Assembly: GCA_030704615.1 (NCBI GenBank)
Contig: CM060732.1
Coordinates: 9,734,001 to 9,798,000, forward strand
Reading direction: 5' to 3'
DNA length: 64,000 nucleotides
DNA from: Takakia lepidozioides
Taxonomy: Eukaryota; Plantae; Bryophyta
This document shows, piece by piece, positions 1 through 30,816 of the stretch (its first letter is position 1; each line of letters starts with the position of its first letter). Made by a program: the position numbers and the translations under genes. The notes under the pieces were generated by a model. The model saw only the letters and a program-made list of their open reading frames with translations, searched no databases and was not told the DNA's origin.

Positions 1-2
1 TT

Positions 3-899
3 TTGGGATCCGTTGACACAAGCGGGGAGAGAAAATATGCACGTTATCAAGCAGGATTGTTGATGAGTTTCATCGATACAATTGGAGTTGATAAAATTGT
101 CCAACCCACGGACAATACATCTAATATGGTTAATATGACCGATATTTTGAAGGTACGATATCCCCATCTATATTACCAAGGGTGTGCTGCTCATATCTTT
201 GATATCCTTTTGGAGGATTGGGGAAAAGAATCATGGGTGAAACAGCTAGTAAAAAAGGCAAAGTCGGTTGTGATGTTCATCCGTACACATCACATCCCTC
301 TGACATTGTTTAAAAAGCATGAACCCAAATACAGCCTTAGCAACCTGGGTGAAACCCGCTTTGCCACAAACTTTTTTATGGTGGATCGACTGGTGACTGT
401 GAGGGTGGGTCTGGAGCAGGTGATCATCGACCCTCAATGGGATGCGTATGTGGGCACCTTACGCGACTCTCGTAAGTCCAAGTCTTTGAGCAAAAGTCGG
501 AGGATCCGCGCAATCATTCGCTCCGACAATTTCTGGGCGAAATGTACAAATTTTGTGTACATGGTGGAGCCGGTGTTTATTGCTTTACATGAGTTTGATG
601 GAAAACAACCAATAATGGGTAAAACATGATTGATATTGGAAAACCTTCATAAGCACGTGCAATCCTTGAGGCGTCCTCCATTCTCTATGGACGATGATTT
701 GGCGGCAAGGACCGAGGATGCATTTTACGACCGCAAACAGATGGTTCGCACGGACTTGCATTATGCGGGGGTCTTGCTGAATCCATTCTTGCTGGACAAT
801 ACGGATTTGAGAGACGATGTGGATGCCAAAGTCGGGCTTGTACGGGTCATCATGCAACTCGTGCCCTTGAACATGGCAGAACGAGCTTTGTCCGAGTAC
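3..899 (+). mobile_element. hAT-superfamily transposase fragment (DUF659-type), pseudogenised; begins before the window
   Basis: ORFs 3..629 and 630..938 are in frame across one stop. They carry hAT motifs VQPTDN, GCAAHIFDILLED, GETRFATNF and LHYAGVLLNP. Similarity ends abruptly near 899 (RALSEY). Confidence 0.8.
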
Positions 900-900
900 T

Positions 901-1350
901 GGTTAGTGCTTCTCGGATTGCCAGAATCATTTCCATGACATGCCGGATCCAAATGCTAAACGACGTAGTTTGAGGGAAACTGCCAAATCTAACATTGTGT
1001 TTGCTCAAGCTGCTCAGGCAAAGAATTACAACCGCCGTGTTGTATATTCTGAGTCATTCAAGGTAGGTCAGTCTGTTTGTGTGAGACTCCAGCCTGGTAA
1101 GCAGATTTCCAAGGCTAAACGGCGCATTGATGGCCCTTACCTTATCTCTGATATTCTTCCTGGCAGGCAGTATGTCTTGCTCCCACAACATGCCTCTACT
1201 CCTCACTTAGCTAGCTCCATTCATGTTTCATTACTTGTTCCATGCACTCTTACTTTTGATCTAACCTGTTTGAATGTTGAGAACCGTCAGGTGATCTTCA
1301 CCCCGACAGCTCAGACAGTTCGCAATCTGACAACCTCTTCTTTAGAGTAG
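901..1350 (+). mobile_element. Ty3/gypsy integrase C-terminal (GPY/F, SH3-like) fragment
   Basis: ORF 940..1350 reads AKSNIVFAQAAQAKNYNRR..FKVGQSV..RRIDGPYLI..IHVSLL, the typical post-core gypsy integrase region. The catalytic core is absent. Confidence 0.75.
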
Positions 1351-1579
1351 TGTTTGAATTTCGTGTTAGTTTTCTACACCATTTGTAGCACTTGGGGTTT
1401 TTCCTATGGGATGTTTTGTTCTCCACCCAGCTTGCAAGGTGAGGTTTTCTTCCCTAGGTTTTTTCATCCCTTGTGTGCCGGGTGTATAGCTTGTTTTGGC
1501 TAGGCTTCATTTTTGTCCTCCCTGAGCTCATCACTCGCAGGAGCTCGCAGTTCCTTATGGCCCCAACAGGCATCACATA

Positions 1580-2118
1580 TGTGGAGCTGGGATTCCTTCT
1601 CACCTAATTTTTCAACATGGATGGATGGAGGAGGGATGCGCTCCGGATGATTTAAGGGATGGACAAAGCCAGGATGAAAGCTGGATGGACTTACACCTTG
1701 CGCATGAGGATGAGCTGGCAACAGCCGATGGCTTTATTAGGGGCTATCTTATTCTAACAGCTAGTTTAGGATCGGATTAGGATGGGACTAGGTGATCTGG
1801 CTTCTTTCTATGGCTATGCTGGAAGGACATCTGGTTGACCTATGTGTAAGTGCCACACGACACTAAGATTAGATTATGACCTAATGCTATTTAAGCCTCA
1901 CTGCCGTGGCAGTGATGGTGGTGGCTTTTGAGTCTTACGTGAGTGATGGTGGCGTAACGGTGTGCCTAAGTGGTTGGATGAAAATGTTGGAGGTCTAGGT
2001 CTGTGGCGTCCTCTTAGAAAGATAATATCTTCTCTGCCAGGCCCTTCTACTGACTACATTCCCTAGATAGGGTCAAGTCCGGTAGAGGAAGGGGAACAAA
2101 CCCATAGCGCCGGAATCA
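1580..2118 (+). repeat. LTR (539 bp, TG...CA), inverted copy of 23045..23585; putative 3' LTR of the dUTPase-bearing gypsy element
   Basis: TGTGGAGCTGG...CGGAATCA. Manual comparison with the reverse complement of 23045..23585 gave about 20 mismatches in the first 365 nt (about 94-95% identity). Confidence 0.9.
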
Positions 2119-2670
2119 GGCATCGCAGGCCTCTCTCCCCTTCCTTAATTTTTGTTCTTAAGAAAATATATATCGGAAGGGTCTAGTAGTATCTAAAGGG
2201 TTAGGGTTTAGGGCGCTGAATCTTAGATGGAACCGGAGGGGCCGGTCGGTGCTGGGAGCTAGTAACCAGATTTTCCCGGTGGATACTGGCGTCTTGACCG
2301 GTGATGGGCGGTCGGGGCCGCAGCGGACCCAGAGAGAAGTGGAGAAAAGGTTGACAATCTGGGTGTGGATTTCTGGGTGTGGATCTGGATGCTAGAAAGG
2401 CTTTGATGGAGGCCTCCTGGTTCTGAGAAGAAACAGGTTTTCTTGTTTGGCAAAGATTTCATGTACCGTAGAGCTTACATGTTTGTTTCTCTTTTATTTT
2501 TTCCTTCAGTACTCCATAGCTTTGGACCGTTGTCAATGAACTTCACGGGGTCGGCTGTCACATACATTGCAAGTTTTGTACATAAGTGAGAGACAGAGAA
2601 GAAGGCACGTAGTTGAGATTGCAGATTTGTTTTATGAGACTGTCAGAGGGAGAGCAGGGAGGTATTGGCT

Positions 2671-5600: not shown

Positions 5601-8433
5601 AGACATGGGTAAGTTAAGAGTAGTCTCCTAATTTCTGACCTATGTCTTACTGTTTTCCTCATTTCTGTCTACAGGTATGAGTTCAATCTTGCTACTTCAA
5701 GGCTATTTCAAGGGTGCAGGGTTGGTTTGATATCTATGAGGCATTTATATTGTTTGGTTTAGAAGTAGGTCGAGTGCGGTCAGGCCTCTCCTAGATTGCA
5801 TGTCATGCTTGCAACATGAAGTTTCAAGTGATTGGTTAGGTGGTATAGATACAATGTTAATTTGCAGACGTGATCTTCAGCACTGTACGGGATATATTCA
5901 TTAGCTTTTACAGCTTGGATAGAGATCAATTGTGGATTCCTTTTTAAGTGTGCATAGAAAACAGCACATGTTGAGAGCTGATGGTTTTGTTGTCTCTCCA
6001 GAGCCTTCAAGTACACACCTGTATGAGGAGATGACGCAGAAAGAAGGGATAGAGGATGTTGTGGTAAGAACAAGTCGCCGGGAGCAGAGATTGTTGAAGA
6101 GAGAGAGGGCGCTAAAAAAGGCTGAGAGGGCTGCGGCTGTAATTGCAGCCACACCGGTCCCTGCTAAGCTCAAGAAAGCGCAGCTAGGTCATGATCTTTC
6201 TGATCCGGTTCGATCGTACTTGCGAGATGTAGGGACGAGCCAATTGCTTACAACTGCTGAGGAGATGGAGCTCTCAGCAGGAATTCAGGTCTGAAGTTCT
6301 GAAATCACTGTTCTGTCCTTTGCTCTGATGGCTTTTCAATTGTCGAAGTATTCAATTGATTTAAAGGCTTCTCTTTCTCATTGTTCTGTTAGGTAAGAGC
6401 AGTCTTTCCAGTTGACAAAAGTTTACCTGAACCAGAGATGAACAAACCCTTGCACATGCACAATGCATGCTGTAACCCTGTCGGATTGTCCTCAAGGCAG
6501 GGGTTGGGTTTGATGCCATACTCAATTCCTTCTATTCTTGTCCCCAGCTAGTATCCTTTGACGTCGTGGTCACTTGTAGGAATGGTGCGTTTGAGTGGTG
6601 CGACAAAACACTCAAAACTTCTACCCAGATGTGGTCTACATGTGGCCACAGATGTTTGAATGAGAGACAAAGTCAGGGGGACAGAAAACTTGCTATCCTG
6701 TCCGCAAGAGTAGCAAACTGTCCTGGCAATGATGGGTGTGGTTTTATCAGGATCTTCTGAGCTTGGAAAAAAGGAGGAAGAATCTGATGGAGCAGCTTGG
6801 GCGGAAGCCAACACTGCTTGAATGGGCTCGGGCGGGAGGCATGGAGCAACACGCATTTGAAGCACGACTCAGGGAAGGCCAGTTTTGCAAAGACAAAATG
6901 GTCAACTCCAACTTGCGGTTGGTTGTCTCTATAGCCAAAAGATACCAAGGGCGTGGCATGACGTTCCAAGATCTCATTCAGGTCTGGTTTTGGGCACTCC
7001 TCTTTCTTTGACAAGTAAGTTGTCTGCCTGTCCATAATCTTGTGTCTGTCCAGTTCACAACTATTCCCACCTTTTTTAGGAGTTGTCATATAAATTGTAC
7101 ACCTGGACTAGCAGTGGTGTAATCTGGGGTGGTCAGCCTTTAGACGTGTGTAAATCGGAACTGGATCCATTACCAACATGCATATCATCTAGTTGTAATC
7201 TGTTTTATGTCAAAACATGGTTATCCAGTATTTCTCTCGAAAGATCTGAGTGCCTCAAACATCTGCCTGGATTTCTTCAAGAGTGTTGCCAGCCACTTCT
7301 CTCGACTAGAGGTGGCAAGGTTAGGTGTTAAAAGACTTTGCATTGTGTTAAACTCGTTCATAATGTAGTTTTATAATATCAATTGATTTGATCACCATCA
7401 TTTTCTTGTCATATGCACCTGTCCTATCAGACTCAAAAGCTTTACATTTTCTTTGGCAGGAAGGGAGCCTGGGTTTGATTCGTGGAGTTGAGAAGTTTGA
7501 CCCCAAGAAGGGTTTCAAGTTCTCCACATTTGCTTTCTGGTGGATTCGGCAGGCCATCACGCGTGCAATAGCTGATCAGTCAAGAACCATTCGCTTGCCT
7601 GTATGTGGCCTCATGGCTTGTCACACCAGCATGAAACAAATCTGAAGAATCTTCTCACGAATGAATACAGTTGACGCTCTGCATTTTGTAAATGCAAAAG
7701 TGGACCCATGGTTTCCCTTCACATTGCCATGGTGGGTGTGCCTTGCAGATTCATGTCTATGAGGTGATAGCGAGGGTCAACAAAGCTAAGAAGATGCTGG
7801 TTCAGGAACATGGCCGCCAACCATGGGATGAAGAAGTGGCAGAACTTTTAGGCATGACTGTTGAGAAGTTGAAAATGATGGAGAAGTCAGCTAAGGCCCC
7901 AACATCAATGGAGCGTCCAATTGGCAAGGACAACGATATCACCGTTGGGGTATGAAGAATAGTTAGGGATACTCTTGTTTTTTGAGAATAGAGTGTAATT
8001 GTTATGTATCCTCGTTACTATGTCATGAGAGATTGTTTTCTTCCAGTTATCCAATACAAAGTTCATGATTGACTTCTTGTAGGTTCAGTTTTTCTTTGCC
8101 TTCCCACTGTCATGAGTGGTACAGGTAATCTGTAAAAGAAATCCTTTGCAGGAAATGATTCCGGACAAGGGCATCGAGTTACCCGAGGATGCGATATCCA
8201 AGCAGCTGCTCAAGCAAGACCTTGAGCAGGTGTTGCACACTTTGAACCCCCGGGAGAGGGATGTGTTGAGATTGCGCTATGGGATGGACGGTGGGCGTAT
8301 GAAAACACTGGAGGAAATAGGCGTTGTTTTTGGGGTCACTCGGGAGCGTATAAGGCAGATTGAGTCCAAAGCTTTACGAAAGCTTAGGCAGCCAAGCCGG
8401 AACAACGTACTCCGGGAATATTTGGATCTGTAG
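2671..8433 (+). CDS. SIG2: Nuclear-encoded plastid RNA polymerase sigma factor, SIG2/sigB-like (7 exons: ~2671-2998 tentative transit-peptide exon, ~5150-5608, 6002-6288, 6751-6981, 7460-7600, 7749-7949, 8152-8433)
   Basis: Sigma70 regions present: 1.2 ([16 protein letters not shown]), 2 ([38 protein letters not shown]), 3 and 4 ([20 protein letters not shown]). The N-terminal [13 protein letters not shown] motif resembles plant SIG2. GT-AG junctions are phase-consistent. Exon 1 and the exon-2 acceptor (5133 vs 5150) are uncertain. Confidence 0.88.
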
Positions 8434-13342: not shown

Positions 13343-15392
13343 GAGAGAAGACTCCGGCCGAAGCTGGCGTAACTGAGAGCCACTTCGCCTTGCGGCTACT
13401 ACTCCCTTTCGGAGGTAGGCCCTGTAAGAAAGACAGATGTCCAGGAGGACACCGGGTAACTAATGAGAAGAGGTACCAATGGTGCCCCAGGGGCACCCTG
13501 GGGTACCTAGGGTACCGTCGTGGGGCTAGATTCCAGTTGCCGTTTGTTGGTAATGATGGCTGTGAGGGAACGTAATCCGTGAGATGGATGGCCTTAAAGC
13601 ATTTGTGGATAGGGGGGATGGGAATTGGGAAGTTGTCGTGGATAACATTAATATTGGCGTTGTGGATACCTCCTCTGGTACCGGCAGTGATGACGGTAAG
13701 TGGGCCGGTATTCCAGCCTCGCCGGCGGATTGCAAGGATAAGTATGACATATTTTTGCCGTTTTTTCTAAAATTGAATCCATGGGGTAGCGATCGTGGCA
13801 ATAAGTGAATTCAATGAAGTGTATTGTGAATTTTGGGGAGGTTGCAGTGGGTAGCGATGTGTTAGTGGGTAGTCCTAGGACAAGTAGAATATCAAGACAA
13901 AGCCTAGCGAGGCATGTGCATGGTGAGCGGGTATATGTACAGGGGAACAACCATGATGGTACCGTGTGGTCTAGGGGTCGACCTTGATAGGTGCCGGTGT
14001 TAATGAGTGAGTACCACCTGGTTTCAGCTCGACTGAGAAGAGGTTTATGAATGTGCCAAACTGCATGATTGTGGCGTGTGATATGAAGGCCATGGATAAT
14101 CGGGTGGGTACAGGTGTGGCCAGGTGTCGCGCTCACGATGGGTGTGTGAGCATAGTAGGCAGTATGGTGATGGGAAGAGGCGTGGCCAGAAGATATGTTT
14201 ACGCTGGTGGCCCATGTATTGGGCATATCGGAACTTGAGGGTTTGCCGGATCTGTGCGTCTGTGGCAGCTTTGGTGTGCCAAAATAGTTGATAGCTTGTG
14301 GTGAAGCACTGTAGACTGTGTCCATTTTTTAATGTGTAATTTGGTGTGGCTTAGCAAGGCGACGACTTGTTTGTTTGCTTCTCGGGTAAGAGTGGTCATA
14401 AGATTACGTATTGGCCGCGGTGCGGGGGGGTCTAAGACTGGGTGGATGAGCCAAAAGGGATGGGTGTGAGCAATGTGAATAGGGTCGTCCGTGGGGGCTA
14501 CTAGGGGTAGAGAGGCGCCTTCTTGGGCAAGCAGGTCTGCCGCCTCATTACCTTGAATTCCGGTGTGTGATCGGACTTTGAGAAAATGGATGGGGTGACC
14601 TTTGGAGACGGGCAAGATGAACGATGGCTGCGATGAGGTTGCGGTCCGGGTGACAGTGGTGGGAGGAGGGGCGGGAGATGTGATTCCGAATGAGAAAGAG
14701 TGAGGTGAGGCTGTCTATGAAGATATAGTATGGGGGCAGGAAGGCATCAAGTAAGGAAAGTGCTTCGAATATGGCCATGAGTTCTGCACGCAGTATGGTG
14801 GCAGGGCCAGGGAGCCTCAGGGCAGTGCCTTGGTTGGTGGTTGCGTGGTATACGCCGTAGCTGGCATCGGGTTTGATGAGGGATCCGTCAGTGTAATGGG
14901 AGCTAGATGGGAGGTATCGAAGAGGGATGTTTTGTCGGTATAATGAGGGTATAGGGGGTATGGGTATTGGCGGGGTGGCCAGGGTAGGGCGCAGGCCCGC
15001 CTTAACCCAAGCTTTATTTGGTTTGATAATGGGGAAGGAAATTGATGCATTGTTAGAGGAATCGGAGTGCGAGCGAGGGATATTTGGGGCGTGGATAACA
15101 ACCTTCATTTTGTGCGTCCGGGTTAGTAGTTGGTTTAGTTGGTGCCGGAAGGGTGTTGGTGGAGTGAAAAGGGAAGAGTGGTGTACATGTAGGATTTGGG
15201 TGAGAAAGGGTCCCTTGTATTGGAGGTATTGGGGTAGGGGTGGGGTATGCACATATTTAAGCTGGTTTGGATCGATTGTGGCTAGTAAGTTGACTCCTGC
15301 AGGGAGACGTAGGAGAGGGTGGGAGTCGTTGGGTGATTGTTGTTGTGTAAGTATGAGGATGATAAAAGCATGGGGAGATGATTGAGCGGCGA
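13343..15392 (-). mobile_element. 5'-truncated non-LTR retrotransposon with RNase H + CCHC + restriction-like endonuclease (Dualen/RandI-like), frameshifted
   Basis: RNase H: YTDGS..AELMAI..FIDSL..KVRSHTGIQGNEAADLLA. Zinc finger: CLLC..DTWPHL..C..RHNHAV. RLE-like: RLCLDIL..IHFIEFTYCHD..K..K. Perfect 11-bp TSD AGCATATTAAG at 13332-13342 and 15393-15403. Confidence 0.8.
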
Positions 15393-16026
15393 AGCATATT
15401 AAGTCTTTATCCTATTGATATTTTTAATCTTTAGAATGTGTGCTTTGACTGGAAGGGTAGGAATGGAGGCTGCTGTTTGGCGCCTGTCCTTTGGCATTTG
15501 CTGACGTGGCCTCCGCTCGGGCTGATGTGGCATCCGTTCATGCTGACATGGCATGAACGTGGGCTCACACCACGTCACAGTGCATCAGCCTGCGCTCGCA
15601 CCACGTCAGCCCCGCGTGAGCGTGCGCTCAGCGCTCACGCCTCACCACTCAAGCCGTAGCGTTTCTCCTGGTGTTGCGCCAATATGAATTAAGGAATTCC
15701 GCTGTCCATTCCTCTCACTGGGGTGGTAATACCAACTGGTGACGGGTCAGGATGATTGTCCTTAGAGCCAGGAGCAATCCTTTGGGCGCCTCTGGTATGG
15801 GTATTGCGGCAATGTCTTATCTTGTCCCCTTGACGCCATGTATGATTACACATCTTGGGGCGATTACAAATGGTATGGAATTTGTTTTATCATGCCCAAG
15901 TGGATTGCTTGGAGGCATGTCTTGATTCTTAAATATTGTAGGTTGGTCCTTATGCTTTGCTTGATGCATGACCCTATGTAATAAAAAGCTGATAAGGTAA
16001 GGTGCTGCAATCAATGATTTTGACCT

Positions 16027-17710: not shown

Positions 17711-18910
17711 GGGGGGGGGGGGGAAACCCTATGTTGTCTCTCCCGCTGTCAGAAGCACGCGATGTGCTTCTGAGCTCGCGGGGAGAGTGTTATGGCGGAC
17801 GTGCTTTGGTGGCTGCCCCGTTTGTGGTGTCGTACCCATGCTGGACAAGCGCCTGGGGAGGCGCGAAGGCAGCGCCTTGTCTCTCTTGCAGCGGGAAACA
17901 CCGCTGTGAATGCAGTGGCATCTTCCCTCCTCTGGCTTTTAAGTTTAGCAGGGGCATTTGTGCTAGGAAGTCTCTCTCCCTCCTTTCTAGTGCCTTGCGA
18001 TTGTGCCTGCTTTGCTTCATTGCTTATGTGCTTTGTGGAGGTGGCTTGCTGCGGGTGATGATGGCGCAAAACCCTCTTCCCCAATCGCTTAAGATGCCTT
18101 TGGAGTTTAGGGATCCTGATGTTCTTATCTTCTTCTCTTGCTTTTGAGTTTCTTAGTTGACATCGATGACAAGTGTGAGGGTCTGTGATTCACCTGGGGT
18201 TCCACAATCCTCACTAATCTGTTGATTTTGTGGGGGCTTGTAATGGGACCAAGTGAGGATCCTCACCTACTTTGAAGTTTCTTGAGCATGCAGTTGGGAT
18301 ATGGGCTGAGGAGACTTGTGGGTTATTGCGCTGTGAGGTGGTTGCTGCCTGCAGCCCCGATTTCAACCCGACTGCTCCTGGTTTGGCATGCTACAGCCTG
18401 TGTTTTGGCCTTTGTCATTCTGCCGTCGATGGGCAGCTCGACCTGTCTGGTTGTTCCTGAGGCCTGCATACATCTTTTGATCTTTGACAGCAGGGCCTGT
18501 GGATTATTGAGCTAGGTTGTAAGTTCTTTGGGCCATAGAGGATCTGGTTTTATGTGGTATATTTTTGGCGGTTTTGGGTCTCTATGGACATGGTGGCCTT
18601 GAATGTTATGGCGGCAGCCTGATAAGGCACCGACCTGCTCCTTTTCGGGCCTGTTTCGGGTGTGTAATGGATCATAATGAGGTGTTCTTTGCAAGCTTTA
18701 GCATGGACCTCTTAAAGGATGAGGATGGTAAGCTGTAATGGGATCCTACCTATAGTTTTGGCTTTGTCATGACATCAGGCCTATGACCTGCAATCTGGTT
18801 TCTTATGTGCAAAAGAGGCTGGATCTCGGTTGTTCAAGTTGCTTGTGTGTACAAGTCTTGAATTTGCAATTTGACAGGCTGAATTCACATTCCCTTGACA
18901 TCTTGTATGA

Positions 18911-20710
18911 TCACATGTCTCGGGGTGAATACAAATGGTATGGATCAAACGTTGTAGAGTAAATGTTGATGTCATCGATGTAAACCAAGGCACATTCCCA
19001 ATGAAGGTTTCCTAAAACGATATCCATTAGGCGTTGAAATGTGGCAGTGGCGTTGCAAAGGCCAAAAGGCATGGTTTCAAATTGAAAGAGGCCCATCCTG
19101 CAGGTGAAGGCAGTTTTCTCTTTAGCAGCAGCAGTTAAAGGAACTTGCCAAAAGCCAGAGGCTAAATCTAAGGAAGAAAATATAGTGGCCCCATTAAGTT
19201 GATCTAGCGTTTCATTGATGCGTGGCAAAGGGTAAACATCCCTCTTAGTGATGGCATTTAAACGCCGAAAATCAACGCAAAAGCGGGTTGAGCCATCTTT
19301 TTTACCCACCAATACAATGGGACTGGCCCAAGGAGATATGGAGGGGGTAATGACACCAACATCAAGCATTTTTGTAATCTCATCCTGAATGACCTTGTGC
19401 TCACGTACACTCTCCCTGTAGGCATGTTGTTTGATAGGCTTACCATCCGTGATGATGTCATGATCCAGAAGGGTTGTACGGCCCAAGACATGAAGCCCTT
19501 GACTAAAGATGTCGAGATTGTCACGTAGAAACTGGTGTAGGCGACTAATCTGCTGGGGAACAAGGTGATCACCCACCTTGATATCCTTTAATACTTGCTG
19601 GAAATGTTGCTCTGCCTCCGGAGTAAGCGGGCCTTTGTCAGTGGAACCAGAGTGAGAGGCAAAGGCCTGGAGTTGGTCCATAGGGGAGTCCACCAGCCCA
19701 ATATCATGAAGACTGAGACCTTTCTGAACAGAAGTCAGCTCAGACAAAGGAGTAGCAGTGAGTCTAGCAAGGACCTGACCCCTACGTATACAGATGCTGA
19801 TGCGTTCAGGATTAGCAAAAAGTAACCGGACCTCACCTTTGAAACCTCGGTCTAAAACCCCAGAAGCAATTAGAAAGTGCTTTTGGATGGTAAGTTTCTT
19901 CCAGCCCTCAATCTCAAGGAAATGACCTGCAGGGCAAGCAAAAGCTAGACCTGTAGGTATTATGCGCTGAGAAAAAGCAGGGATGATGAAGTCAACAGGA
20001 GAACGTAGCAAAAGAGAGTTCTTTGCCACGGGCAGTGGAGGTCCAGACTTCTTACCTGGTGGAGGGAAATGCCATTGATACAAGGTAGCACCAATTGGGT
20101 GGAACTGGCTGAACCTGGCCCAATTATAATGCAAACCCACCTGCTCCTTTATCTGCTCAGCTTGAAGCTTGAGACTAGAATAGTTGGCCATAGAGGTCCC
20201 AGCAGCAATGGTAACATGGTTTAGATTCACCTTGTAGGGTTGTCCTTCACCATTGTGAAGACACATAATGTTATTCATGATGTCTATGCTGGCCTCTGCA
20301 CCCTTCATCCAATCCAGATCCAGCAAAACTTGCTCACCCATGGTGACAATGCAGGTTAGCAAGACAGTTTTCCCACTAATGCGGATAGGTAAGGTGACTA
20401 ACCTGATAGGTTCATAAGCCGTGCCATCAGCTATGGTAACCACAAGACCATGAGCAGAACCAATCTTTAATCCAAGAATGCAAATTGTGCTAAGTGGAAT
20501 GGCAGACATGGTACAGCCCGTATCAATAACACATGGAAAGGAAAGGTGGCCTACATGGCATTGTGTCATCAACAGGTGAATACGGTCCCGACTGACACGT
20601 TTATAGGCTTCACAATGCATGAGTTTGAAATCATGAGAAAGAACAGCACTTACCAGCGTGTTGGGGTTCTTACCATGGTCATCTGGCACCCTCACAGACG
20701 ACCTGGTTCG
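18911..20710 (-). CDS. pol: pol: aspartic protease, dUTPase-like domain, reverse transcriptase (truncated at ~18940)
   Basis: Uninterrupted 594-aa ORF. Protease: VIDTGCT..VLLDLDWM. dUTPase-like: IIPTGLAFACPAGHFLEIEG..GVLDRGFKGEV..IRRGQVLARL. RT: FCVDFRRLN..PLPRI..LDLASGFWQ..MPFGL..VYIDD. Confidence 0.9.
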   Translation of the reverse strand, partial: RTRSSVRVPDDHGKNPNTLVSAVLSHDFKLMHCEAYKRVSRDRIHLLMTQCHVGHLSFPCVIDTGCTMSAIPLSTICILGLKIGSAHGLVVTIADGTAYEPIRLVTLPIRISGKTVLLTCIVTMGEQVLLDLDWMKGAEASIDIMNNIMCLHNGEGQPYKVNLNHVTIAAGTSMANYSSLKLQAEQIKEQVGLHYNWARFSQFHPIGATLYQWHFPPPGKKSGPPLPVAKNSLLLRSPVDFIIPAFSQRIIPTGLAFACPAGHFLEIEGWKKLTIQKHFLIASGVLDRGFKGEVRLLFANPERISICIRRGQVLARLTATPLSELTSVQKGLSLHDIGLVDSPMDQLQAFASHSGSTDKGPLTPEAEQHFQQVLKDIKVGDHLVPQQISRLHQFLRDNLDIFSQGLHVLGRTTLLDHDIITDGKPIKQHAYRESVREHKVIQDEITKMLDVGVITPSISPWASPIVLVGKKDGSTRFCVDFRRLNAITKRDVYPLPRINETLDQLNGATIFSSLDLASGFWQVPLTAAAKEKTAFTCRMGLFQFETMPFGLCNATATFQRLMDIVLGNLHWECALVYIDDINIYSTTFDPYHLYSPRDM

Positions 20711-20716
20711 TTTAAA
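20663..20716 (-). promoter_or_regulatory. Programmed -1 ribosomal frameshift signal (U UUA AAC, 6-nt spacer, stem-loop/pseudoknot)
   Basis: TTTAAAC (20716-20710) is in the gag frame as X XXY YYZ and pol is in the -1 frame. Stem GGTCGTCTG/CAGATGACC (9 bp, one G-U) starts 6 nt downstream. Loop GGGT can pair with downstream ACCC. Confidence 0.85.
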
Positions 20717-21893
20717 GTACCCTGCTGTTTCTTTTCCTTTTGTAACTGTTCAATCAGGGCAGGCAAGTTAGATTGGTAAGGGCACCACCTAGTGTAATGC
20801 TTGATGGACTTGCAAATCATGCAAGCCACCACTGAGGTCCTGGTGTCATGACGCATGCCAGCATAGGCTTTACTTTGAGTCCCGGATCTGGCAGGGACTG
20901 CAGAGTTCTAGCCTACCTCAGCCTTGAAGGCTTGCAGCTCTCCCTGGATTTCATTATGAAAGGATGACAATTCATGCACAATGGAAGGGACCAGATCTGC
21001 TGCAATACCTTTCACCCCAGGGTCCCCATCAGTAGGCTCTACACAATGACTCTCACTAGCGAGATGAGTGTGTTTCGTGGTGGCAACTTTAGACAGGTCT
21101 GCCTTAGCAGCTTTGAGACGTAATCGTTCTTCAATCAATTCCACCATCTCATCTTCAGTGGTGTAAGACTGTTTTTGCAAAAACACTTTCTCAGCAGGTG
21201 GCAAGCCTTTTACAAAACAATGTTTCAAAATAGCAGGTCTCTCTGATGTAATCAAAACCGACTTACAAATTGCAGTACGTAAATCAGTGTAGTATTTCCA
21301 CACACTGTCGCCATAATGAAATTTTAAGTCTGGTGTGGTGTAAGCTATGGGCTTTTCTTCACGAAAGAGCTTGCGAGCCAACTCTCTAGCCTCGACCCAC
21401 GTAAGATCAGTTTTGTCCTTAATGTTGGACTCAAATAGTTGCCTGGCCTCTCCCTTGAGATAGATCCGAAAGGACTTGACTTGGAATCGTGGAGGAACCC
21501 CATTCATTTCAGTGCTGATTCAAAAAATTCCAAGAAGGACTCAAAATCCTCCCCTATGTTGTACTTAGGGTATTGTTGCTTATACATTCGCTCTCCATGA
21601 TCAGATTTTCGTGGAGTAGTGTCCGGAGCCTCAGATTGTTTCAGCAACATCTTCAAAAGGGGGGGGCAATTTGAAATAACCCCCATGGCTTCACACAGCT
21701 CGTCCAAATCAAATGTGGGCTGAGGCACAGTCGCTGGATCTTTGTGATCTCCGGACGACTCTCCCCTTTCCATATTATTCTTTTCATTAGTTGCTGTCTC
21801 TTCCCTCTCCTCCGCTGCACGTTTTTCCAACTCACTCAGTCCCATTGTTTCTTCTGCTTCCCTTTCTAGCATAGATCTTGTAAATACAGGCAT
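20692..21893 (-). pseudogene. gag: gag with CCHC zinc knuckle; one frameshift (~21507) and one in-frame TAG (20908)
   Basis: MPVFTRS..PKYNIGEDFESFLEFFE..YLKGEARQLF..TWVE..FVKGLP..CMICKSIKHYTRWC. Confidence 0.85.
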
Positions 21894-21911
21894 GAGAAGA
21901 GAAGGACACGG

Positions 21912-22832
21912 CTACCTGTCCGAAGGAGCACTAAGCTGCGAGTCCCACCCAGACACACAGTGGGAGGTGATAAAGCGGTGCTTGTGCAGCAGGTACACTC
22001 CTTCGCCCAAGAATGCCCACAGCTCTTCTTCTCCCTTGAGCCAAAAAACCACGCGCACAATGCTGCGCACCACTTTTTCTTTCACCAACAGCGTGTGTGC
22101 AGGATAGGTTCGTGATTCCTCGGCCTTGTAGAGACCTACCATTTCACGCCGAAAACACACCCCCGGAAAGATCAACACATCACTAGGACAAAAAGGAAAT
22201 TCAGAGTCAGGGATACCCGTGATGAGCTCTTCGCAAGTGGGATCCCCGGTAGGGGCTGGCGGAACTCGAGGTCTTAAATTAGCAAGCAGGATAGATGTTC
22301 CTCCCTTAACCAGTTCCCACAAGCGTAGAGGGCTCGGCTTGTCAGGAGGTAGGAAGCTCTCAAGCTCCACACCCAATTCTCGATTCACAGAGAATTGTGG
22401 GATGTCCAAGACAGCCCAACTAAGCTTCTCACCACCCTCCAACTGTTCCTTGGCACTAGCAAGGGGGATTTGTAGAGTGACTTCCCTGGAGTGAAGTTTG
22501 AGGAGCAGGCGTGCAGCATAGGCCCCCTGAAGCGATTCACGAATGCGCCTTCTCTGCTCCCGCTGCTCTGCTTTGGTACGTATGGGCTTGCAGGTTTCCT
22601 TGCGCGCAGTTTCCTCAAATGTTTTGGCCCAGATCTCTGAGGGCGTGTCCAACGGGAGCTCAGGGCACAGAAGAGGTTCTCCTTCCGGGTAATCAACAAA
22701 AACCAACTGCTCAGGCAACATGTTGCGCGCAAGCTCGCAAATGTAGTGAGATTCCAACGCCAGAGTCTGCTTCAAGCGCAGGACCTCAAATTGATCAAGT
22801 TCAAACCAACCACGTTCAGAACTAGAAGCCAT
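21912..22832 (-). CDS. Extra 5' ORF of unknown function inside the retrotransposon (306 aa from MASSSERG; 345 aa from the upstream ATG at 22949)
   Basis: Intact sense ORF between the PBS and gag. It stops 18 nt before the gag ATG. No domain recognised. Confidence 0.7.
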   Translation of the reverse strand: MASSSERGWFELDQFEVLRLKQTLALESHYICELARNMLPEQLVFVDYPEGEPLLCPELPLDTPSEIWAKTFEETARKETCKPIRTKAEQREQRRRIRESLQGAYAARLLLKLHSREVTLQIPLASAKEQLEGGEKLSWAVLDIPQFSVNRELGVELESFLPPDKPSPLRLWELVKGGTSILLANLRPRVPPAPTGDPTCEELITGIPDSEFPFCPSDVLIFPGVCFRREMVGLYKAEESRTYPAHTLLVKEKVVRSIVRVVFWLKGEEELWAFLGEGVYLLHKHRFITSHCVSGWDSQLSAPSDR

Positions 22833-23026
22833 CGCGCTTGTTTGCCGGACTCTCAAAACACAAGAAAACACGAACAGACAAACTCCCTCTCTCTCTCTCT
22901 CTCTGCGTGCGAGACAACAGTCACCATTTTGCCACCCCTCTTCCTGCAATCATGCAGAATCCCCGTACCCAATCTACTGTTCTCAGGTGCTCCGTACTCA
23001 CTAAATCCTCTGTCAACGACTTTAGT

Positions 23027-23044
23027 TACCCCGCATCTCCACCA
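23027..23044 (-). other. Primer binding site complementary to the tRNA-Ala 3' end
   Basis: TGGTGGAGATGCGGGGTA directly abuts the LTR CA. It is the complement of ...TACCCCGCATCTCCACCA, the 3' end of plant cytosolic tRNA-Ala. Confidence 0.85.
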
Positions 23045-23585
23045 TGATTCCGGCGCTATGGGTTTGTTCCCCTTTCTCTACCGGACTTGACCCTATTTGG
23101 GGAATGTAGTCAGTAGAAGGGCCTGGCAGAGAAGACGGAATCTTTCTAAGAAGACACCATAGACCCATACCTCCAACACTTTCATCCAACCACTTAGGCA
23201 CACCGTTACGCCCAACGTACGCTCGCGTAAGACTCAAAAGCCACCACCCTCACTGCCACGGCAGTGAGGCTTAAATAACATTAGGTCATAATCTAATCTT
23301 AGTGCCATGTGGCACTTACACATATGTCCACCAGATGTCCTTCCAGCATAGCCATAGAAAGAAGCCAGATCACCCAGTCCCATCCTAATCTGATCCTAAA
23401 CTAGCTGTTAGAATAAGACAGCCCCTAATAAAGTCATCAGCTGTTGCCAACTCATCCTCATGCGCAAGGTGTAAGTCCATCCAGCTTTCATCCTGGCTTC
23501 GTCCATCCCTTAAATCAGCTGGAGCACATCCCTCCTCCATCCATCCATGTTGAAAAGTAAGGTGAGAAGGAATCCCAGCTCCACA
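23045..23585 (-). repeat. 5' LTR (541 bp, TG...CA)
   Basis: Inverted copy of 1580..2118, followed by the PBS. Confidence 0.92.
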
Positions 23586-26500
23586 TGCCCTTTCAATCAA
23601 ATTAATTTAAATAAAGGTTCACAAGAGGTGGAAAAAATAACCACCAGGAGGCCGTAAAGGCTAACTGGGGGATGCTACCCCGTCCCTATAGCAAAGCAAC
23701 TATATGAAGAGAAAGAGATACAGACAGTGAGGAAGACACTCAATTTTGAGTGAGAAAGTGAAGGTAGAGCCTAAAAGGAAATGCTGCTAAGCAGAAACGC
23801 AAGTTAATGTAAGGGGCAAAGCAAGAAGAGCGTGCGAATGCGCAAGAGGAGAATCAACGCGTAGCCACTACACAATCTGACATGCACAAAAGTCTCCACA
23901 CCTTCATACACTCCAGATACACTTGTACACAAAAGACCCCGAACTCTTCGTCACGCGCTGCTTATACGGGGAACCCTAGGAGGGCCATGACCTACCGCGT
24001 GGCGAGGCGTAAGAGGCCCGCGACGCGCTACGCGGCGCCTCATCTGTGCCCTAGATTAGATGAGCGGTGAGGATAGAGCCAGCAAGCTAGGTTAACCCTA
24101 GCTGCACTATGATTGTAATGGACCCTAACGGTACAATCGCCGAAAAAATACAGGAATGAATGATACCTACTGATGGATGAAAAAGGAAAAATTGGGCATA
24201 GGATGTAATGGGGCTTGAGAGCATGTACCCCCATATCACGATTACCATTCCACTCGACGGCGGGTTGACATCGTCTTCTCTCACGACAGGCTGCGCACAT
24301 TGGCGGACGTCGTCACCGCTGAACCTACCAGGTCGGATCTCCTCCCAGGCACAGCCTCATCACAGGGAGTTGCTGCTTTAGTAGCCGCACAGGGAAAAGA
24401 GCAAGATTACCGGAACGGCACCCAACAGACACATTCCTCCCTTTGGTAGTCGAGATTTTCTGTTGTTTGCATTAGTAGTTCAACGATTTCCTTCGCACAT
24501 GTGCCCACCGCGCAACAGAAAACAAAAGCATTGGAAATCCAAACGTCTATGTCCTTTTAGCCTTCTTTACTAGACGAGTTGACAACTAGCATGTAGCCCA
24601 GTAGTAATGGGCACAAACCATGTTGGATGTGGTTGTGGCTTCAAACCACGGTCTGGTGTGTCATGAAGGTGTCCACCTTTCAGCTGGAAGGCACTAGCCC
24701 TTGTGGTGAAGTGACACCATAAGTTACGCTCCCTTCGGGAGGCGCGACATACTTTTTTCTTTACTAGATGAGTTTCTGTTGCTTTACAAAAGGCTCAAGC
24801 TCTATCTATTTTGCGTCGGGCAGAGGTTGTTGGGGCAATTTCATCTCGCCTCCCTGCACTTTCTGACCTTCCTCAGGCCGTAGGTGATACTAGAATAGCC
24901 TGAATTCTCTTGTTTAATATATCTAGCTCAATGAGATTTTGCTTCTCCTTTTGGGGAGAGTGTTACCCATTTGTAGTCACCCTACTTGGGTCTTTTTATA
25001 AAACTACGCGGGAGTTACTGAGTAGGTCTCACTTTCTCTTCCTCGATTGCAATGCCTTTGTGAGTGTGTTTTCCGGCCTGAAGTTGGCAGATCAGATTTC
25101 CACAATGTACCGTGTGCCACTCCTGATTACTACAACACAATGTTGGTGAGGGTTGAGACAAACGACCACAAACTTCCAGACTCATCCCTGAAGATAAGTA
25201 GGCAGGCATCTACAAATCCTCCCACTTTCATCAAAATAGAAGAGGGCAGGTAATCCACTGAGCTTGCTGTTAGAGAGGGCCTACTCTCTCCAATCTACAC
25301 CTCTATGAAAGGGAATTGACCTTGTTAAGTCACTCAGAAATCCATGAATCTTTCAAAATGCTAGACACAACAAGAAGATCTGCCATTAGTCAGAGCTACA
25401 ATGACATGTAATGTAAACATGCATCAGTGAAAGGGCAATTCTTTCCAGTGCAAAAACCAGTGATCTGCAGCAAACACTCGACATGACCTCTTCCAAATCA
25501 TTCCTAAACTCTCAGGACTGATAATGAGCACAGGTGCTCGCAGAACATGTCCTGTTTATATCCCTCCATTAATCGGATACATAGAATGTTGGGAAGTATG
25601 TCTAATCAAAGTGAACATTATCACTATCATCCCCCAGAAAGGTCACTTTCATAAATTGAACGTAACATACAACAGTGAAGTGCAGAGTATCAGACTGTTA
25701 CTCGCTTCTTGCATCGGTAAATACAGCAATCTTTACAAGCGGCTGACATTCAGCCCACATGAACCCAATAATGAATGTAGACCAATTCTTTGTTGGGCCC
25801 ATTCTATTGATCACACCTCTCATAGCTTGGTAACTAAGAGCAGGAGTGGCCTACTCATGGATGACAAACCCTAAATTCCCAAAAAGCGACGCATCGCTCT
25901 GAACCACAAATCTCTCATAGCTTGGTAGATAACCAAAGGAATGCCCTTGTCTTGACTGACAAACCGTGAATCAAACTACCGTCCCTCCCAAAAAGCGATG
26001 GGTCACTCTCACCAGTGGCCTGCAATGCAGCCAGACTGTGAACCACAACAGCTGGATTGGCTTTGGCCCTGCCCAGAGCTCCAAGCCTAGAACACTGTTG
26101 ACATCATTTCAGTTCCCAAAGCCAGAACCTGGGATGATATAGCCCAACTAAGGTGCCAAACACAGGTATGCATAGGCTGCATACACCCTACCTAAGAGTA
26201 AAATGTCCTCAATTCCCCTCAACACCTCTGGCAAACCACAACACCTTCGCATTAGACCAATCCTGCGAGTGCAAACTCCTAGTGTTAAAAACCACGATGC
26301 ACTACTACTCTTCAACCTTGCAGCCTGGAGGAAAACATTAAGGCTATCGAAACAACCTATGTCCATGTAAATTTTGGACCTAAACTGCACCATGTTTTAA
26401 CACTTTCCCTCATGACTAGATTAAATTCTAGACACCTGCAAGTGCTCTTCCTTCCCCTGCACAAGGAGCCAACAAATTAACGCCGTAAATAAAAGCCTTC

Positions 26501-26759: not shown

Positions 26760-29700
26760 CTATGGAGGTTGCCCATCGTGCATTGTGTTAGGTGGTGCAT
26801 GATGATGGTGATGATGGTGCTGGTGTTGGTGTTGTCGCTGCTGATGCTGTTGTTGCAACATATAGGAATTGCACACATCCATGTTCAGAGGCTGCATGCA
26901 CATTCCAAACAATTTCAAAATCATGTCAGCCATAAGTGAGTTGCTATTTTTACAAGTGATGATGAAGATTAAATGAGTGAAGGAGAGGGGGGAAGGAAAT
27001 GCGTGAGAAAGTGGTTTTGCTGACTATCAGGTCCTCAGGAACAAGCTATCAGTTATAGAATCAGTGACGCACATCCTCCGATCTAGGAGCACTCCAAGGT
27101 TGTCACAAGTAATCCACCGAAATTCAGTTATTCCACATGCTATGTACAACCCACCTTTGCCAAAAGCTACTAAAGTCAGTCAGGGGTGGGTTACATAAGC
27201 TTGTCGCAATGTCCATGCAATGGGGACTACCCATCGCTCTTAACAATAAAAGTGCTCAAGCCTAAAAAGAAACTAAGCATGTGAACAGAGAATTAAAAAC
27301 ATAACGAACCAAGGTGGGCAAAGGTGACAGTAGCAAATTCCTCTTTGTAATAGGTCCCCAGATTGTGCACAAAGTACAGGGAAGATAGAGCAGAAGGAAA
27401 ATCCAAAGAAGACCTTGTAGGCAGATGAAATCCAAAGAAGACTTCAGAAATGAATCATTTTATGTACTGGAACTTACCTGGGGAATTTGCTGTCGAGGAA
27501 GGTAAGCATTTAAGGACTCCATGATGTTTGCATTGTGCATGCGAGGGTCATGCATATCCATGTTGGATTGGGTACCTGCCACACCTGCATTCTGTGATGG
27601 CCCAGCAGGGGATGAAAAAGGCATCCCTGCTCGTCCAGAGGTGGCTGCACTCATGTCGATCATACCCATTTGCATCCCCATTCCCATATTCATCCCTATG
27701 CCCATATTCATTCCCATGGGAGACATGGATGTCAGGTGCGACATCTGCAGATGCTGCATCCCAGCAGGCATGACCATAGATGGTATGCTCATCCCACTTC
27801 TCATGGACATCATCTGCACAAACCACACCCGGTAGCAGAAACTTGAGATTAGTGTACAACTTGGCACCTTCCAAGAAACAATCAAATAGAAAATCCATCT
27901 CTGAGAGCAGAGTAACAGTATGATCTTGGTCTGAGTGTTACCCATGAAGTAGGAGTGAGAACAGGGCTAGAAAGGCTTCCAATTACCTGGAGTTGTAGCT
28001 GAAGCATCTTCAAATATTCAATTGCTTCATCGAGCATTGAAGCCTTATCAGTCTGAAATGCCAACCACTCTAAACTCAGAACCTCGCCATTTCACTTATA
28101 TACTCTTATAGTGGACCAGTGGGCATACTGAGCACCATCCCGAGATAACTGAGAAAGTCAGTGTGGACAATGGGACCCCTAGATACAACCTCACAGGTTG
28201 CTGTTCATAGGGGACAACATATGGGGGACAGTTCCACAGCCCTTCGCCCAGAGTAGCCTATGGTGCATAGTGAATATAGAAGTGGTTTGGTTCGAAGATC
28301 TACTGCTACACTTTACCAAGCCCAATGACTGAAAATCTGAAAGCGGGGGGTCTATACTGAAGGTCAATCCTTGGAGCTGGCTTTTGGCGTAGAACACTCG
28401 TCCAAAGATCTCCAAATGCAACAACACTTACCAATCAGAACCATTCTAACTTGCCAACTGAAGATTTTCGCACCACATCGCAAAGGCTAAGGCAGAAGAC
28501 TAGTGAGGAAAGTTTTCATAGAAGGGCAAAGAGGCCCTGCCAGTACATGTTACAGACTACAATAGTAGATAAACACACTATAAAATTGGTGATTCAAGAG
28601 GCTCTGAACTGTGTTAAACACTAGGAGCTCTACAGCGCAATTAAGATGGCCAAAAACAATGCCAGGGTACTTCTCCTATCCAATTATCACTGGTCTATGT
28701 TCAAAGACGACTACCAAAAGCAGTAGTCCACATGCACACGCTTTAAAATCCACGATCAAAGAGCGTGCACAAACCTTATTTGAGTTTGGTATCAGCTCCT
28801 GCAGGGCCTTCATCTTCTCATTGATTCTATCTCGTCGCCGCTACAACAAGGAGACAACAGGCAAGCAGTTCCTCTCAAAATAAAGCTCAGCTAGCGATAG
28901 GAACTACCAGCACAAAAAAATTCCACAACAAAGAAGCACGGGGAAACCTAACAGCAGTTTGAGAAAACAGGAAGACGTGGACGCACGCGTTCAGAAAGAT
29001 TGTGGACTTCGGCAGCTCTACTTCTCTTGGCTGTGCTCCCACGTCCTGGTGGGGGTTTCTTCAAGTCCACTGATTCCTCTTCTACATCCTGACATCATAA
29101 CGTCCAAGATCAGGGTTACTGAACCACCTTAAGCAAGAAAAAGTCCTGAACAGGAATCCTGAATCCATGCCAAATGCATTAGTTGAGCACATACAAGGAT
29201 CAATTGAGCCCCACTTTGCAGTCAATGGATACCTATGACAAAGATTGCAGCAACTCACTTCACTCTGGCATTCTGATTCTTCGACCTCACGAGTCCTCCT
29301 TTTATTACATGTCGCTGCCTCTTTTGGCCTCTCTGCACTATTGTCAGAGCCACCTACTGCCGACGTGATGGTTGGTTCCTGAGCATCTGGAACTTCTGCT
29401 CCCGGAGAGAACCCTTTATCTGAGGAGGCTAAAGCACTACCAGTCACACTAGATATCCGGCAGGTATCCACTTCCATGGCTTGATTTCTAGAGTCAATCC
29501 CCTCTCCGTCTCTCACAACAGGGTCAACCTCTTTTCTGGCCACCAGATTAGGGGGAGTAGGCCAGCTGGGGTTCACACCCAACCTGGGCTGTTGGGTCCC
29601 TGAGCTATCAAAGTGCAGCCCATTGTCTCCTTGCATTCCCACGGCACCCCTCCATGTTGTGGTTGATTCAGCAACAGTTGAGTCGGTTGAAGTGCTTGCC

Positions 29701-30816
29701 TCCAAGTTCAACTTCCCAAAATTCTGCAATCGGATGTCAGGGGTGGGGCCGGATGCCATCCCCAAACTATGCAAATTGGCTTTCATAATCGCAGCCGGCC
29801 GTGAGAAGTGTGCAAAGTTCATAGGTCCTGATGTCCTAGTAGAATGGTGTGGCAACTGGTTAGTAGCTGCCACAGGTTGGAGCATAGGAACAGAGACAGG
29901 CTCAGAGGCAGGAGGAGAGACTCTTGTATGGGTTCCGCTCGAAGAAGGATGCACAAAAGCCTTGGATGAGTTAGGAGGGAGACAGTTTGGTTGTGGCTTT
30001 GCATTTGATGGTCGCAAAGTCCGCACTTTGCTGAACGCCTCTGCCCCAGCCTGGGGTATCAAACCTGCCGCTCGGCCAGCCCCTAATGCCATGGCGGCCT
30101 CTGCACTTGCAGCCCTGTTGACAACCACATTACTTCCTACGTTCCCTGGTATTGGCATCCGCTGGGCTCGCCCCACTCCTTGCCCGACAAAGGAGTCAAC
30201 CTGCACGTTAGAATCTGGCAGCTCCCCAAAAAAGTCGGAGCAATAATTCCTCTCGAGACAATCATCGAGCGGATATTGTAACCATGACACCATCTCGTCA
30301 TCCTCAAGATTGCTGGAAGGGGCGGCGGGGGTTTCAACCACCGTCTCATTCACTACGGCCTCCAGCGTGCCATCCTTGGCAGCTGAGGGGGACTTTGAAG
30401 GTGTCACCCCACGGTCAGTCTCTTGCCTGTTGCCCCAGTGGGGATTAGAGTTCTGGCGCCACTGGGGCTTAGTGCCTTTGATGCGTTGGCCCTGCATTGC
30501 TATGTGCGCATGCTCAGTCCAGGGCCAATCCACGAATTCATTGTCCGGCCTGCAAAAACGGTCATAGACCATCACACAATTATAAGCCTGTGCCACAGAT
30601 CTCTTGAGCGAATCACTTACACGCAATCTCAAGTGACTAATCTCATCAAGTACTAAGCGTTTGGAGGACTTACACGATCGGCAAATCTGGACAGTGACCC
30701 CGCCTTCGATGCACTGGTTCCCACTTTCCTTTCACTGAGCGAACGAAATTACTCGCTGGTAAGGCTGCATCCAGTCCAACGGCGTGCCTATCCAAGTCTG
30801 GAACACAGAGACTCAT
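26760..30816 (-). CDS. PIF: Phytochrome-interacting factor (PIF1/PIF3-like bHLH); exons 30816-30674, 30549-29259, 29088-28987, 28840-28775, 28052-27987, 27813-27478, 26891-26760
   Basis: MSLCVPD start; EDDEMVSWLQYPL motif; APA-like MNFAHFSRP; bHLH [58 protein letters not shown] with the conserved 66-bp exons. All GT-AG junctions are in phase. Met-rich and His/Gln-rich C-terminus. Confidence 0.93.

Follow-up and report, generated by a model that had tools for sequence, protein, structure and literature searches.

A Decayed Ty3/gypsy Element of a Land Plant With a Degenerate dUTPase-Like Domain Between Protease and Reverse Transcriptase

Introduction

Does the Pol polyprotein of a land-plant retrotransposon contain a dUTPase, and if it does, is the domain an enzyme, and how did the element come by it? 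The question is raised by a Ty3/gypsy element in a 64,000-nucleotide (nt) stretch of Takakia lepidozioides DNA (GCA_030704615.1, contig CM060732.1, positions 9,734,001 to 9,798,000; the whole stretch is called the window below), for which an earlier note, made from the sequence alone, had claimed a dUTPase-like domain between protease and reverse transcriptase (RT). The window element is the broken 5' half of a decayed Ty3/gypsy copy, whose RNase H and integrase core are missing from the window (Table 1). Our preferred reading, which we consider probable, is that it is a copy of a multi-copy, non-chromoviral land-plant family, likely allied to Selgy, with a dUTPase fold that is likely inactive and vertically inherited. 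The protease–dUTPase–RT order is known in fungi and small animals and is apparently undescribed in land plants; such a family would extend the range of a domain that the available papers present as rare outside retroviruses.

The dUTPase-Like Domain

Residues 248–339 of the pol product match the Pfam dUTPase profile (E = 1.2e-7, 32 bits with a cut-off of 22), the neighbouring matches being the protease (E = 0.003, below its own cut-off) and RT (E = 2e-22). When compared with solved trimeric dUTPases, the dUTPase-like domain yields a best E of 1.6e-7. The claim of a dUTPase at this place thus holds for the fold and the position, and fails for an intact enzyme, as most of the catalytic motifs are lost.

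In the five-motif dUTPase test, only motif III is recognisable in the window domain. According to the alignment, AGxDL of motif I, RSG/RSS of motif II, Gln of motif IV, and the glycine-rich motif V are absent from the window protein and from P0073, P0075, P0077, and P0086. The window protein has a KSG; it lies upstream of the domain and off the motif II position, and so does not provide motif II. Two other element-borne proteins, P0084 and P0093, retain all four of these motifs.

The search with the protease–dUTPase query against 1.84 billion representatives gave 210 matches, the top ones of which carry the same protease and degenerate domain, namely P0073 (E = 8e-48, 36% over 289 residues), P0074, P0075, P0080, and P0085. 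In the domain tree, eight degenerate domains (the window domain and those of seven relatives, 29–44% identical to it) form one clade against 22 others with a support of 98/98, a rough value as the bootstrap had not settled. The degenerate group matches stand-alone dUTPases with an HH probability of 99.8. Since the same motifs are lost in sequences that are just 29–44% alike, the dead form appears to have been kept for a long time.

According to the mutagenesis work reviewed in PMC4531489, loss of motif V suffices to abolish the activity of the dUTPase of equine infectious anaemia virus; bovine immunodeficiency virus (BIV) retains an inactive dUTPase (same paper). Judging by its motifs, the window domain is likely a conserved pseudo-enzyme without dUTP hydrolysis, and the role of the fold in Pol would be structural. 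The structure model of the protease–dUTPase part is poor (pLDDT 37), and all its matches in the ESM Atlas score under 0.9 and serve as leads only.

Outside the degenerate clade, five gypsy Pol proteins (P0084, P0093, P0138, P0220, P0222) have an intact five-motif or near-intact dUTPase behind the protease.

Copies of the Family

Contigs matching window positions 18500–24000 are present in all four DNA runs considered, which represent at most two samples (3171 contigs in run X1, and 2806, 2061, and 196 in the others), at 80–99+% identity, and in each of the four runs they cover 30 out of 30 bins of this region. The depth summed over contigs in X1, which is not a true copy number, equals 3186–4523 in the dUTPase bins, 5854 in the protease, 6291 in RT, and 3318–5964 in the open reading frame (ORF) upstream of gag, ORF1; for a contig of the unique flank it is 57. 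None of the 15 listed joints, out of 57, removes the dUTPase domain or ORF1 whole. As variant contigs cover every part of the element, both ORF1 and the dUTPase-like domain are family traits. The earlier note had allowed for other copies that lack both; instead, the contig depth over the two is similar in order of magnitude to that over the protease and RT, and tens of times that of the unique flank.

Twelve contigs from a run presumed to be RNA match the 3' region at lower identity and are not taken as expression. The locus searches produced no relative in its genomic context: of two metagenome loci, one carries an RT fragment of distant kinship and the other matches bacterial sequence spuriously, genome contigs and viral contigs yielded no relatives, and the search among longer proteins returned nothing. 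Contamination was considered and ruled out: copies of the long terminal repeat (LTR) lie amid intron-bearing plant genes, and sequences of the family abound in the host DNA runs.

Cryptic dUTPase Fold in RT Relatives

The segments preceding RT in 48 RT relatives, those whose sequence extends far enough ahead of RT, were compared with two profiles. With the profile of the degenerate domains, 26 out of 48 segments score higher than any of 288 controls made by shuffling or reversal, and with the profile of 64 stand-alone dUTPases, 12 out of 48 exceed the best control. Furthermore, 41 pre-RT segments, chosen by position only, match the stand-alone dUTPase profile with an HH probability of 94.9% (E = 4.4e-8); after column shuffling, the highest of ten values is 0.08. 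The RT relatives with the cryptic fold (within P0001–P0072) have no precomputed Pfam dUTPase label, and several of them come from animals. The second, chromovirus-like element of the window, used as a control, has a dUTPase score below zero. Judging by these profile matches, many members of the non-chromoviral branch have a cryptic dUTPase fold, which may be general in the animal-type gypsy branch.

Papers on dUTPase-bearing gypsy elements, in the parts available, present the domain as rare or separately captured (PMC2864245, PMC5408684, PMC6431247, PMC11011659). A broader reading, which we put forward tentatively and do not regard as established, is that Pol of a large non-chromoviral Ty3/gypsy branch would have had the dUTPase fold from its ancestor onwards and not through repeated capture. 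Most animal members would retain the fold as a catalytically dead structural domain, and so would an undescribed land-plant lineage with an orphan 5' gene, represented by the window family. If this were true, many independent captures would give way to one old gain with widespread catalytic loss, and a non-enzymatic role of the domain in Pol folding or particle assembly would become testable.

RT and Position Among Gypsy Elements

Among solved structures, the window RT is most similar to that of Ty3 (E = 8e-35; the best retroviral RT gives E = 2e-12). The RT tree was built for 27 of the 65 full-length RT matches, with long branches and near-duplicates omitted, and the partial RT of the second element of the window. 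In this tree, the window RT is separated from two chromovirus-like rows (98/95), and its sister is P0077 (65% identity, 99/96), which also has the protease and the degenerate dUTPase fold; a quick tree of all 65 RTs contains the same sister pair. The named proteins among the 72 database matches of RT are mostly from animals such as sponge, fluke, bug, and fish, with the best identity to named animal elements of about 58–59%, and none of the 72 is a named plant protein.

The protease is encoded ahead of RT, and the two are not separated by an integrase; a tail with the GPY motif ends pol before the 3' LTR, the middle section being absent from the window. No chromodomain was found in the integrase tail by Pfam, and the element does not classify as a chromovirus; no env was found in either half.

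These data agree with the view of the earlier note that RT is more animal-like than chromoviral, as it is non-chromoviral and its named neighbours among the matches are animal elements. The label "retrovirus-like," on the other hand, should be dropped: we see nothing beyond Metaviridae-wide features, neither env nor a membrane-spanning stretch in ORF1, and RT is nearer to Ty3. As for an uncatalogued lineage with accessory genes, the extras are indeed family traits, but the wording was too strong given the hallmarks of Selgy, the forward 5' ORFs of Tekay, TatII, and Ogre, and the published protease–dUTPase–RT elements.

Comparison With Known Elements

Selgy, a non-chromovirus Ty3/gypsy lineage described in REXdb from Selaginella moellendorffii, uses tRNA-Ala in 90% of cases, has a 4-bp target site duplication (TSD) in 96% and overlapping gag and pol in 65%; it is 4.4–6.7 kb long, 5.0 kb on average, consists almost entirely of the polyprotein, and has no extras listed in the available text (PMC6317226). 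The window family likewise has a tRNA-Ala primer, overlapping gag and pol frames, probably a 4-bp TSD, and no chromodomain. It differs in having the 306-amino acid (aa) 5' ORF and the dUTPase fold, such an additional ORF or domain being unlisted for Selgy, and in the inferred length of about 8 kb; hence the window element departs from the Selgy trait of being short and free of extras. As no Selgy RT was in the tree, the link with Selgy rests on three structural traits, and, given the extras and the putative nature of any RT kinship, we do not file the element as Selgy. Phygy has a tRNA-Trp primer and an NCGN target, whereas the window element has tRNA-Ala and GGCA.

The protease–dUTPase–RT order has been published for fungi, namely for basidiomycete PosPlaTy3-5, Phanerochaete, and Tuber Tmt1 (PMC2864245). 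Juno, Vesta, and TelKA of bdelloid rotifers (PMC5408684) and planarian Burro (PMC6431247) carry a dUTPase in Pol between protease and RT, and in a vertebrate metavirus serving as a proxy for the PNMA ancestor, a dUTPase-like domain was seen by profile and structure searches (PMC11011659). The window element shares the domain in Pol with the fungal, bdelloid, and planarian elements, and its place between protease and RT with PosPlaTy3-5, the bdelloid elements, and Burro. In contrast to them, its host is a land plant, and the domain lacks four out of five motifs lineage-wide. REXdb serves at present to classify the LTR retrotransposons of plants; the main text of its paper never mentions dUTPase and lists none for any plant lineage (PMC6317226), in agreement with the earlier note, which held that plant gypsy elements normally lack it. 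In the available parts of a mostly open-access literature, no report of a land-plant protease–dUTPase–RT element was found (PMC2774666, PMC12885004, PMC12083454, PMC13468544, PMC5890265, PMC5009743).

The dUTPase-related peptide of BIV is also a conserved dUTPase-derived piece of Pol with incomplete motifs, but it comprises about 74 aa and lies between RT and integrase of a retrovirus, whereas the core fold of the window element is nearly full length and stands before RT (PMC4531489, available part). Forward extra ORFs at the 5' end are listed for Tekay (33%), TatII (23%), and Ogre (21%) (PMC6317226). The window element resembles these three in having an extra ORF of more than 250 codons between the primer binding site (PBS) and gag; they differ from it in other primers, a mostly 5-bp TSD, and the presence of aRH or a chromodomain. 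For the Tat clades, tRNA-Ala is not among the dominant primers given in the available text of PMC6317226.

Structure of the Element

The TG..CA LTR, the 18-nt tRNA-Ala PBS abutting it, and the 306-aa ORF upstream of gag, all claimed by the earlier note, were located on the minus strand (Table 1). The claimed CCHC gag and the pol in the -1 frame are present as well, although the lesions of gag had gone unmentioned, as had the truncation of RT at 18944, the inverted 3' end of the family at 953–2118, and the short in-frame distance from the ORF1 stop to the gag ATG.

Table 1. Parts of the element and of the same-family 3' end in the window.
Feature	Coordinates	Strand	Remarks
5' LTR	23045..23585	-	541 nt, TG..CA; outer flank ends GGCA; other copies diverge into differing flanks at 23585
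PBS	23027..23044	-	18 nt, complement of tRNA-Ala 3' end; zero spacer to LTR; same PBS behind LTR in other copies
ORF1	21912..22832	-	306 aa from ATG; family unassigned; covered by variant contigs in 4/4 runs
gag	20692..21893	-	broken in the window copy; called gag by position and CCHC knuckle
CCHC knuckle of gag	20823-20782	-	
Predicted -1 frameshift signal	20675..20716	-	slippery heptamer TTTAAAC at 20716-20710 and hairpin across gag stop
Aspartic protease	20260..20560	-	DTG at 20524-20516; domain ends approximate
dUTPase-fold domain	19697..20008	-	motif III Asp retained; motifs I, II, IV, V degenerate
RT	18944..19462	-	cut off just past YIDD by unrelated repeat; other copies run on
Integrase C-terminal tail, same family	953..1350	+	GPY at 1132, chromodomain absent; other copies extend upstream of 953
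3' untranslated stretch	1351..1579	+	no polypurine tract beside LTR; contigs 1456-1613 (X1) and 1521-1643 (X3) bridge into LTR
3' LTR, same family	1580..2118	+	93% identity to 5' LTR, then GGCA; possibly other half of one insertion

ORF1 is longer than expected by chance, as a stop-free run of 306 codons occurs in none of 2000 shuffles of the stretch (maximum 230). Its stop is in frame with gag, and the gag ATG follows 6 codons further on. No homologs of ORF1 were found in the homolog search, ESM Atlas, Pfam, or PHROGs; in particular, the Pfam scan gave nothing for the families named for the Ogre, Retand, and Athila ORFs, and the best match among PDB sequences has E = 1.5. The fold search gave no match at E 0.001 and is meaningless, as the query was a single-sequence model with pLDDT 32. 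A membrane-spanning stretch is absent, the best 19-residue hydropathy being 1.1. ORF1 is thus one more orphan accessory protein.

Two lesions disrupt the gag gene of the window copy: the frame is broken near 21510, and a stop codon interrupts it at 20910–20908. Contigs of other copies vary in length near the break (~21510), and therefore it is not family-wide. For the capsid part of gag, neither a profile match nor any useful match in Pfam or other sequence searches was obtained. The pol frame is -1 relative to gag, and TTTAAAC is the sole X XXY YYZ heptamer in the gag/pol overlap and is in the correct register. The hairpin that follows it has a predicted energy of -24.7 kcal/mol with a modest z of -2.1, seven out of 200 shuffles being equally good; the Rfam search gave no match. 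U_UUA_AAC is counted among the most shift-prone heptamers (PMC5009743). The same paper cites a 2003 survey in which plant elements that keep gag and pol separate had them in the +1 frame only; a canonical -1 site is therefore uncommon in the published record of plant gypsy elements. When 33 coding differences were classed singly, ORF1 had five synonymous and ten non-synonymous ones, and pol, seven and three, respectively; being mostly private to the window copy, they carry little information on selection.

LTRs, Primer Site, and the 3' Half

The 5' and 3' LTRs are identical in 504 of 541 alignment columns, with a divergence of 6.9% (Kimura two-parameter, K2P). Permuted LTRs were ruled out, as both LTR copies share the same TG start and CA end, and other copies diverge into their flanks there. 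The first 15 complementary bases of the PBS coincide with the 3' end of the tRNA-Ala(TGC) gene in locus L033, called by ARAGORN; this 15-mer is present in 42 loci and forms the end of a called tRNA gene in one of them. We take this tRNA-Ala end to be of the green-lineage type.

The integrase tail at 953–1350 is joined to the LTR by contigs of other copies, and so the region 953–2118 is the 3' end of the family. GGCA stands just outside both LTRs, in the orientation that an inversion would yield, the frequency of this 4-mer being 0.4%. The region meets a hAT repeat at 953, and the 5' half meets a LINE-like piece at 18944. By our own estimate, we lean slightly towards a single insertion that made a 4-bp duplication and was later split, through deletions and an inversion spanning about 18 kb.

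The best candidate for a polypurine tract before the 3' LTR in 1351–1579 has 9 purines out of 15. The sole purine run nearby lies within the LTR at 1627–1636. One contig of X6 matches 10 nt past the LTR end (2119–2128) before diverging, which hints at a preferred target sequence.

Evaluation of the Explanations

Under the preferred reading, a transcript from the 5' LTR would yield ORF1 first and then Gag from the next ATG, by leaky scanning or re-initiation, and Gag-Pol would come from the minority of ribosomes that slip by -1 at U UUA AAC against the hairpin. Reverse transcription would be primed by host tRNA-Ala, and integrase would make the 4-bp duplication at insertion. The dUTPase fold, most likely without hydrolysis, would persist in Pol as a folded spacer with a structural or oligomerising role, having been inherited vertically from an old ancestor of the gypsy branch; an old inheritance is likely, rather than a recent capture. 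After insertion, the inversion would have placed the 3' end at 953–2118 on the opposite strand, and the end of RT would have been lost along with RNase H and the integrase core. The window insertion itself is dead and says little on the biology of the host.

A working dUTPase, captured by a plant lineage to keep uracil out of cDNA as in betaretroviruses or fungal elements, would account for the Pfam and PDB matches to trimeric dUTPases, the retained Asp of motif III with nearby glycines, and the intact dUTPases at the equivalent position in P0084 and P0093. However, relatives at 29–44% identity show the same degeneration of motifs I, II, IV, and V, which is not the decay of a single copy, and we hold such an enzyme to be very improbable. 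Hardly better is the case for a horizontal transfer of the family into the plant from an animal or fungus. It would explain an animal-like RT together with the dUTPase fold, and the named RT matches are indeed from animals, with no named plant protein among the 72. Yet an identity of about 58–59% is ordinary for distant gypsy RTs, transposon proteins of plants are usually masked in gene sets, and a series of relatives at 30–44% identity points to a long residence in some lineage; the PBS also agrees with a tRNA-Ala end that we assume to be of the green lineage. Such a transfer thus seems improbable.

Two other explanations have more in their favour. The element could be an ordinary Selgy (or Phygy), with a weak-scoring domain overlooked in the reference elements and only ORF1 being new: the PBS, the gag/pol overlap, and the probable TSD length agree with Selgy, many relatives hold the domain in a cryptic form that has no precomputed Pfam label, and liverwort elements have previously been filed as Selgy and Phygy (PMC12885004, available part). 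We regard this as doubtful, though worth serious attention, because Selgy is nearly all polyprotein at 5.0 kb on average and has no extra ORF, Phygy uses tRNA-Trp and NCGN targets, and the window domain exceeds the Pfam cut-off and so is not hard to detect. ORF1, in turn, might not be a gene of its own but encode the N terminus of a long Gag, set off from the rest by a stop that is either a private mutation of the decayed copy or read through. The stop is in the gag frame just 6 codons before the gag ATG, gag has two other lesions, and ORF1 as a free protein has no homolog. On the other side, the ORF1 stop codon is not among the 40 listed copy differences, a weak argument given 920 further ones, and Ogre, TatII, and Tekay often have a forward 5' ORF distinct from gag. 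In addition, the gag ATG opens M-P-V-F-T-R-S, a start that we take to be typical of gypsy Gag. A long Gag is, in our opinion, rather unlikely.

Several observations weigh against the preferred reading of a Selgy-allied family with an inactive, inherited dUTPase fold, and against its extension to the whole branch. Inactivity is deduced from motifs, and the Asp of motif III is kept; the support of the degenerate clade may partly reflect long branches, in addition to the unsettled bootstrap. The two halves, which lack RNase H and the integrase core, already total 5.8 kb, to be compared with 4.4–6.7 kb for whole Selgy elements, and the RT tree held no RT of Selgy, Phygy, Athila, or Tat. In X2, the depth falls to 762–1053 over 19788–20339. 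Regarding the cryptic fold, 22 out of 48 segments failed to exceed the controls, the stand-alone dUTPase profile was built from matches to the window query, which favours look-alikes, and the sole animal-type segment in the domain tree (P0002) has a very long branch and falls outside the degenerate clade. Finally, as the repeats at 953 and 18944 are unlike and the LTRs are 6.9% apart, the halves may be two independent truncated copies.

Surroundings of the Element

A plastid-type sigma factor gene with introns occupies 2670–8433 on the plus strand (Pfam), which identifies the host as a land plant; the 3' LTR is located about 550 nt upstream of its start. The region 27460–30731 (minus strand) presumably contains a bHLH gene similar to phytochrome-interacting factors, with no Pfam match. 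The second gypsy element, chromovirus-like and with no dUTPase signal, lies at 43942–49341 (minus strand) and has LTRs of about 400 nt that are 89% alike; its primer site appears to us to be of the tRNA-Met type. What we take to be a high-copy remnant of a hAT-like transposase (1–953, plus strand; no Pfam match for the piece scanned) is fused at 953 to the integrase tail. On the minus strand, remnants similar to long interspersed nuclear elements (LINEs) at 13648–15879 and 18400–18944 share a 53-nt match, and one of them contains an RNase H-like stretch (Pfam E = 0.001). At 63020–64000 (plus strand), motifs suggest what we assume to be the start of a copia-type gag, running off the window end.

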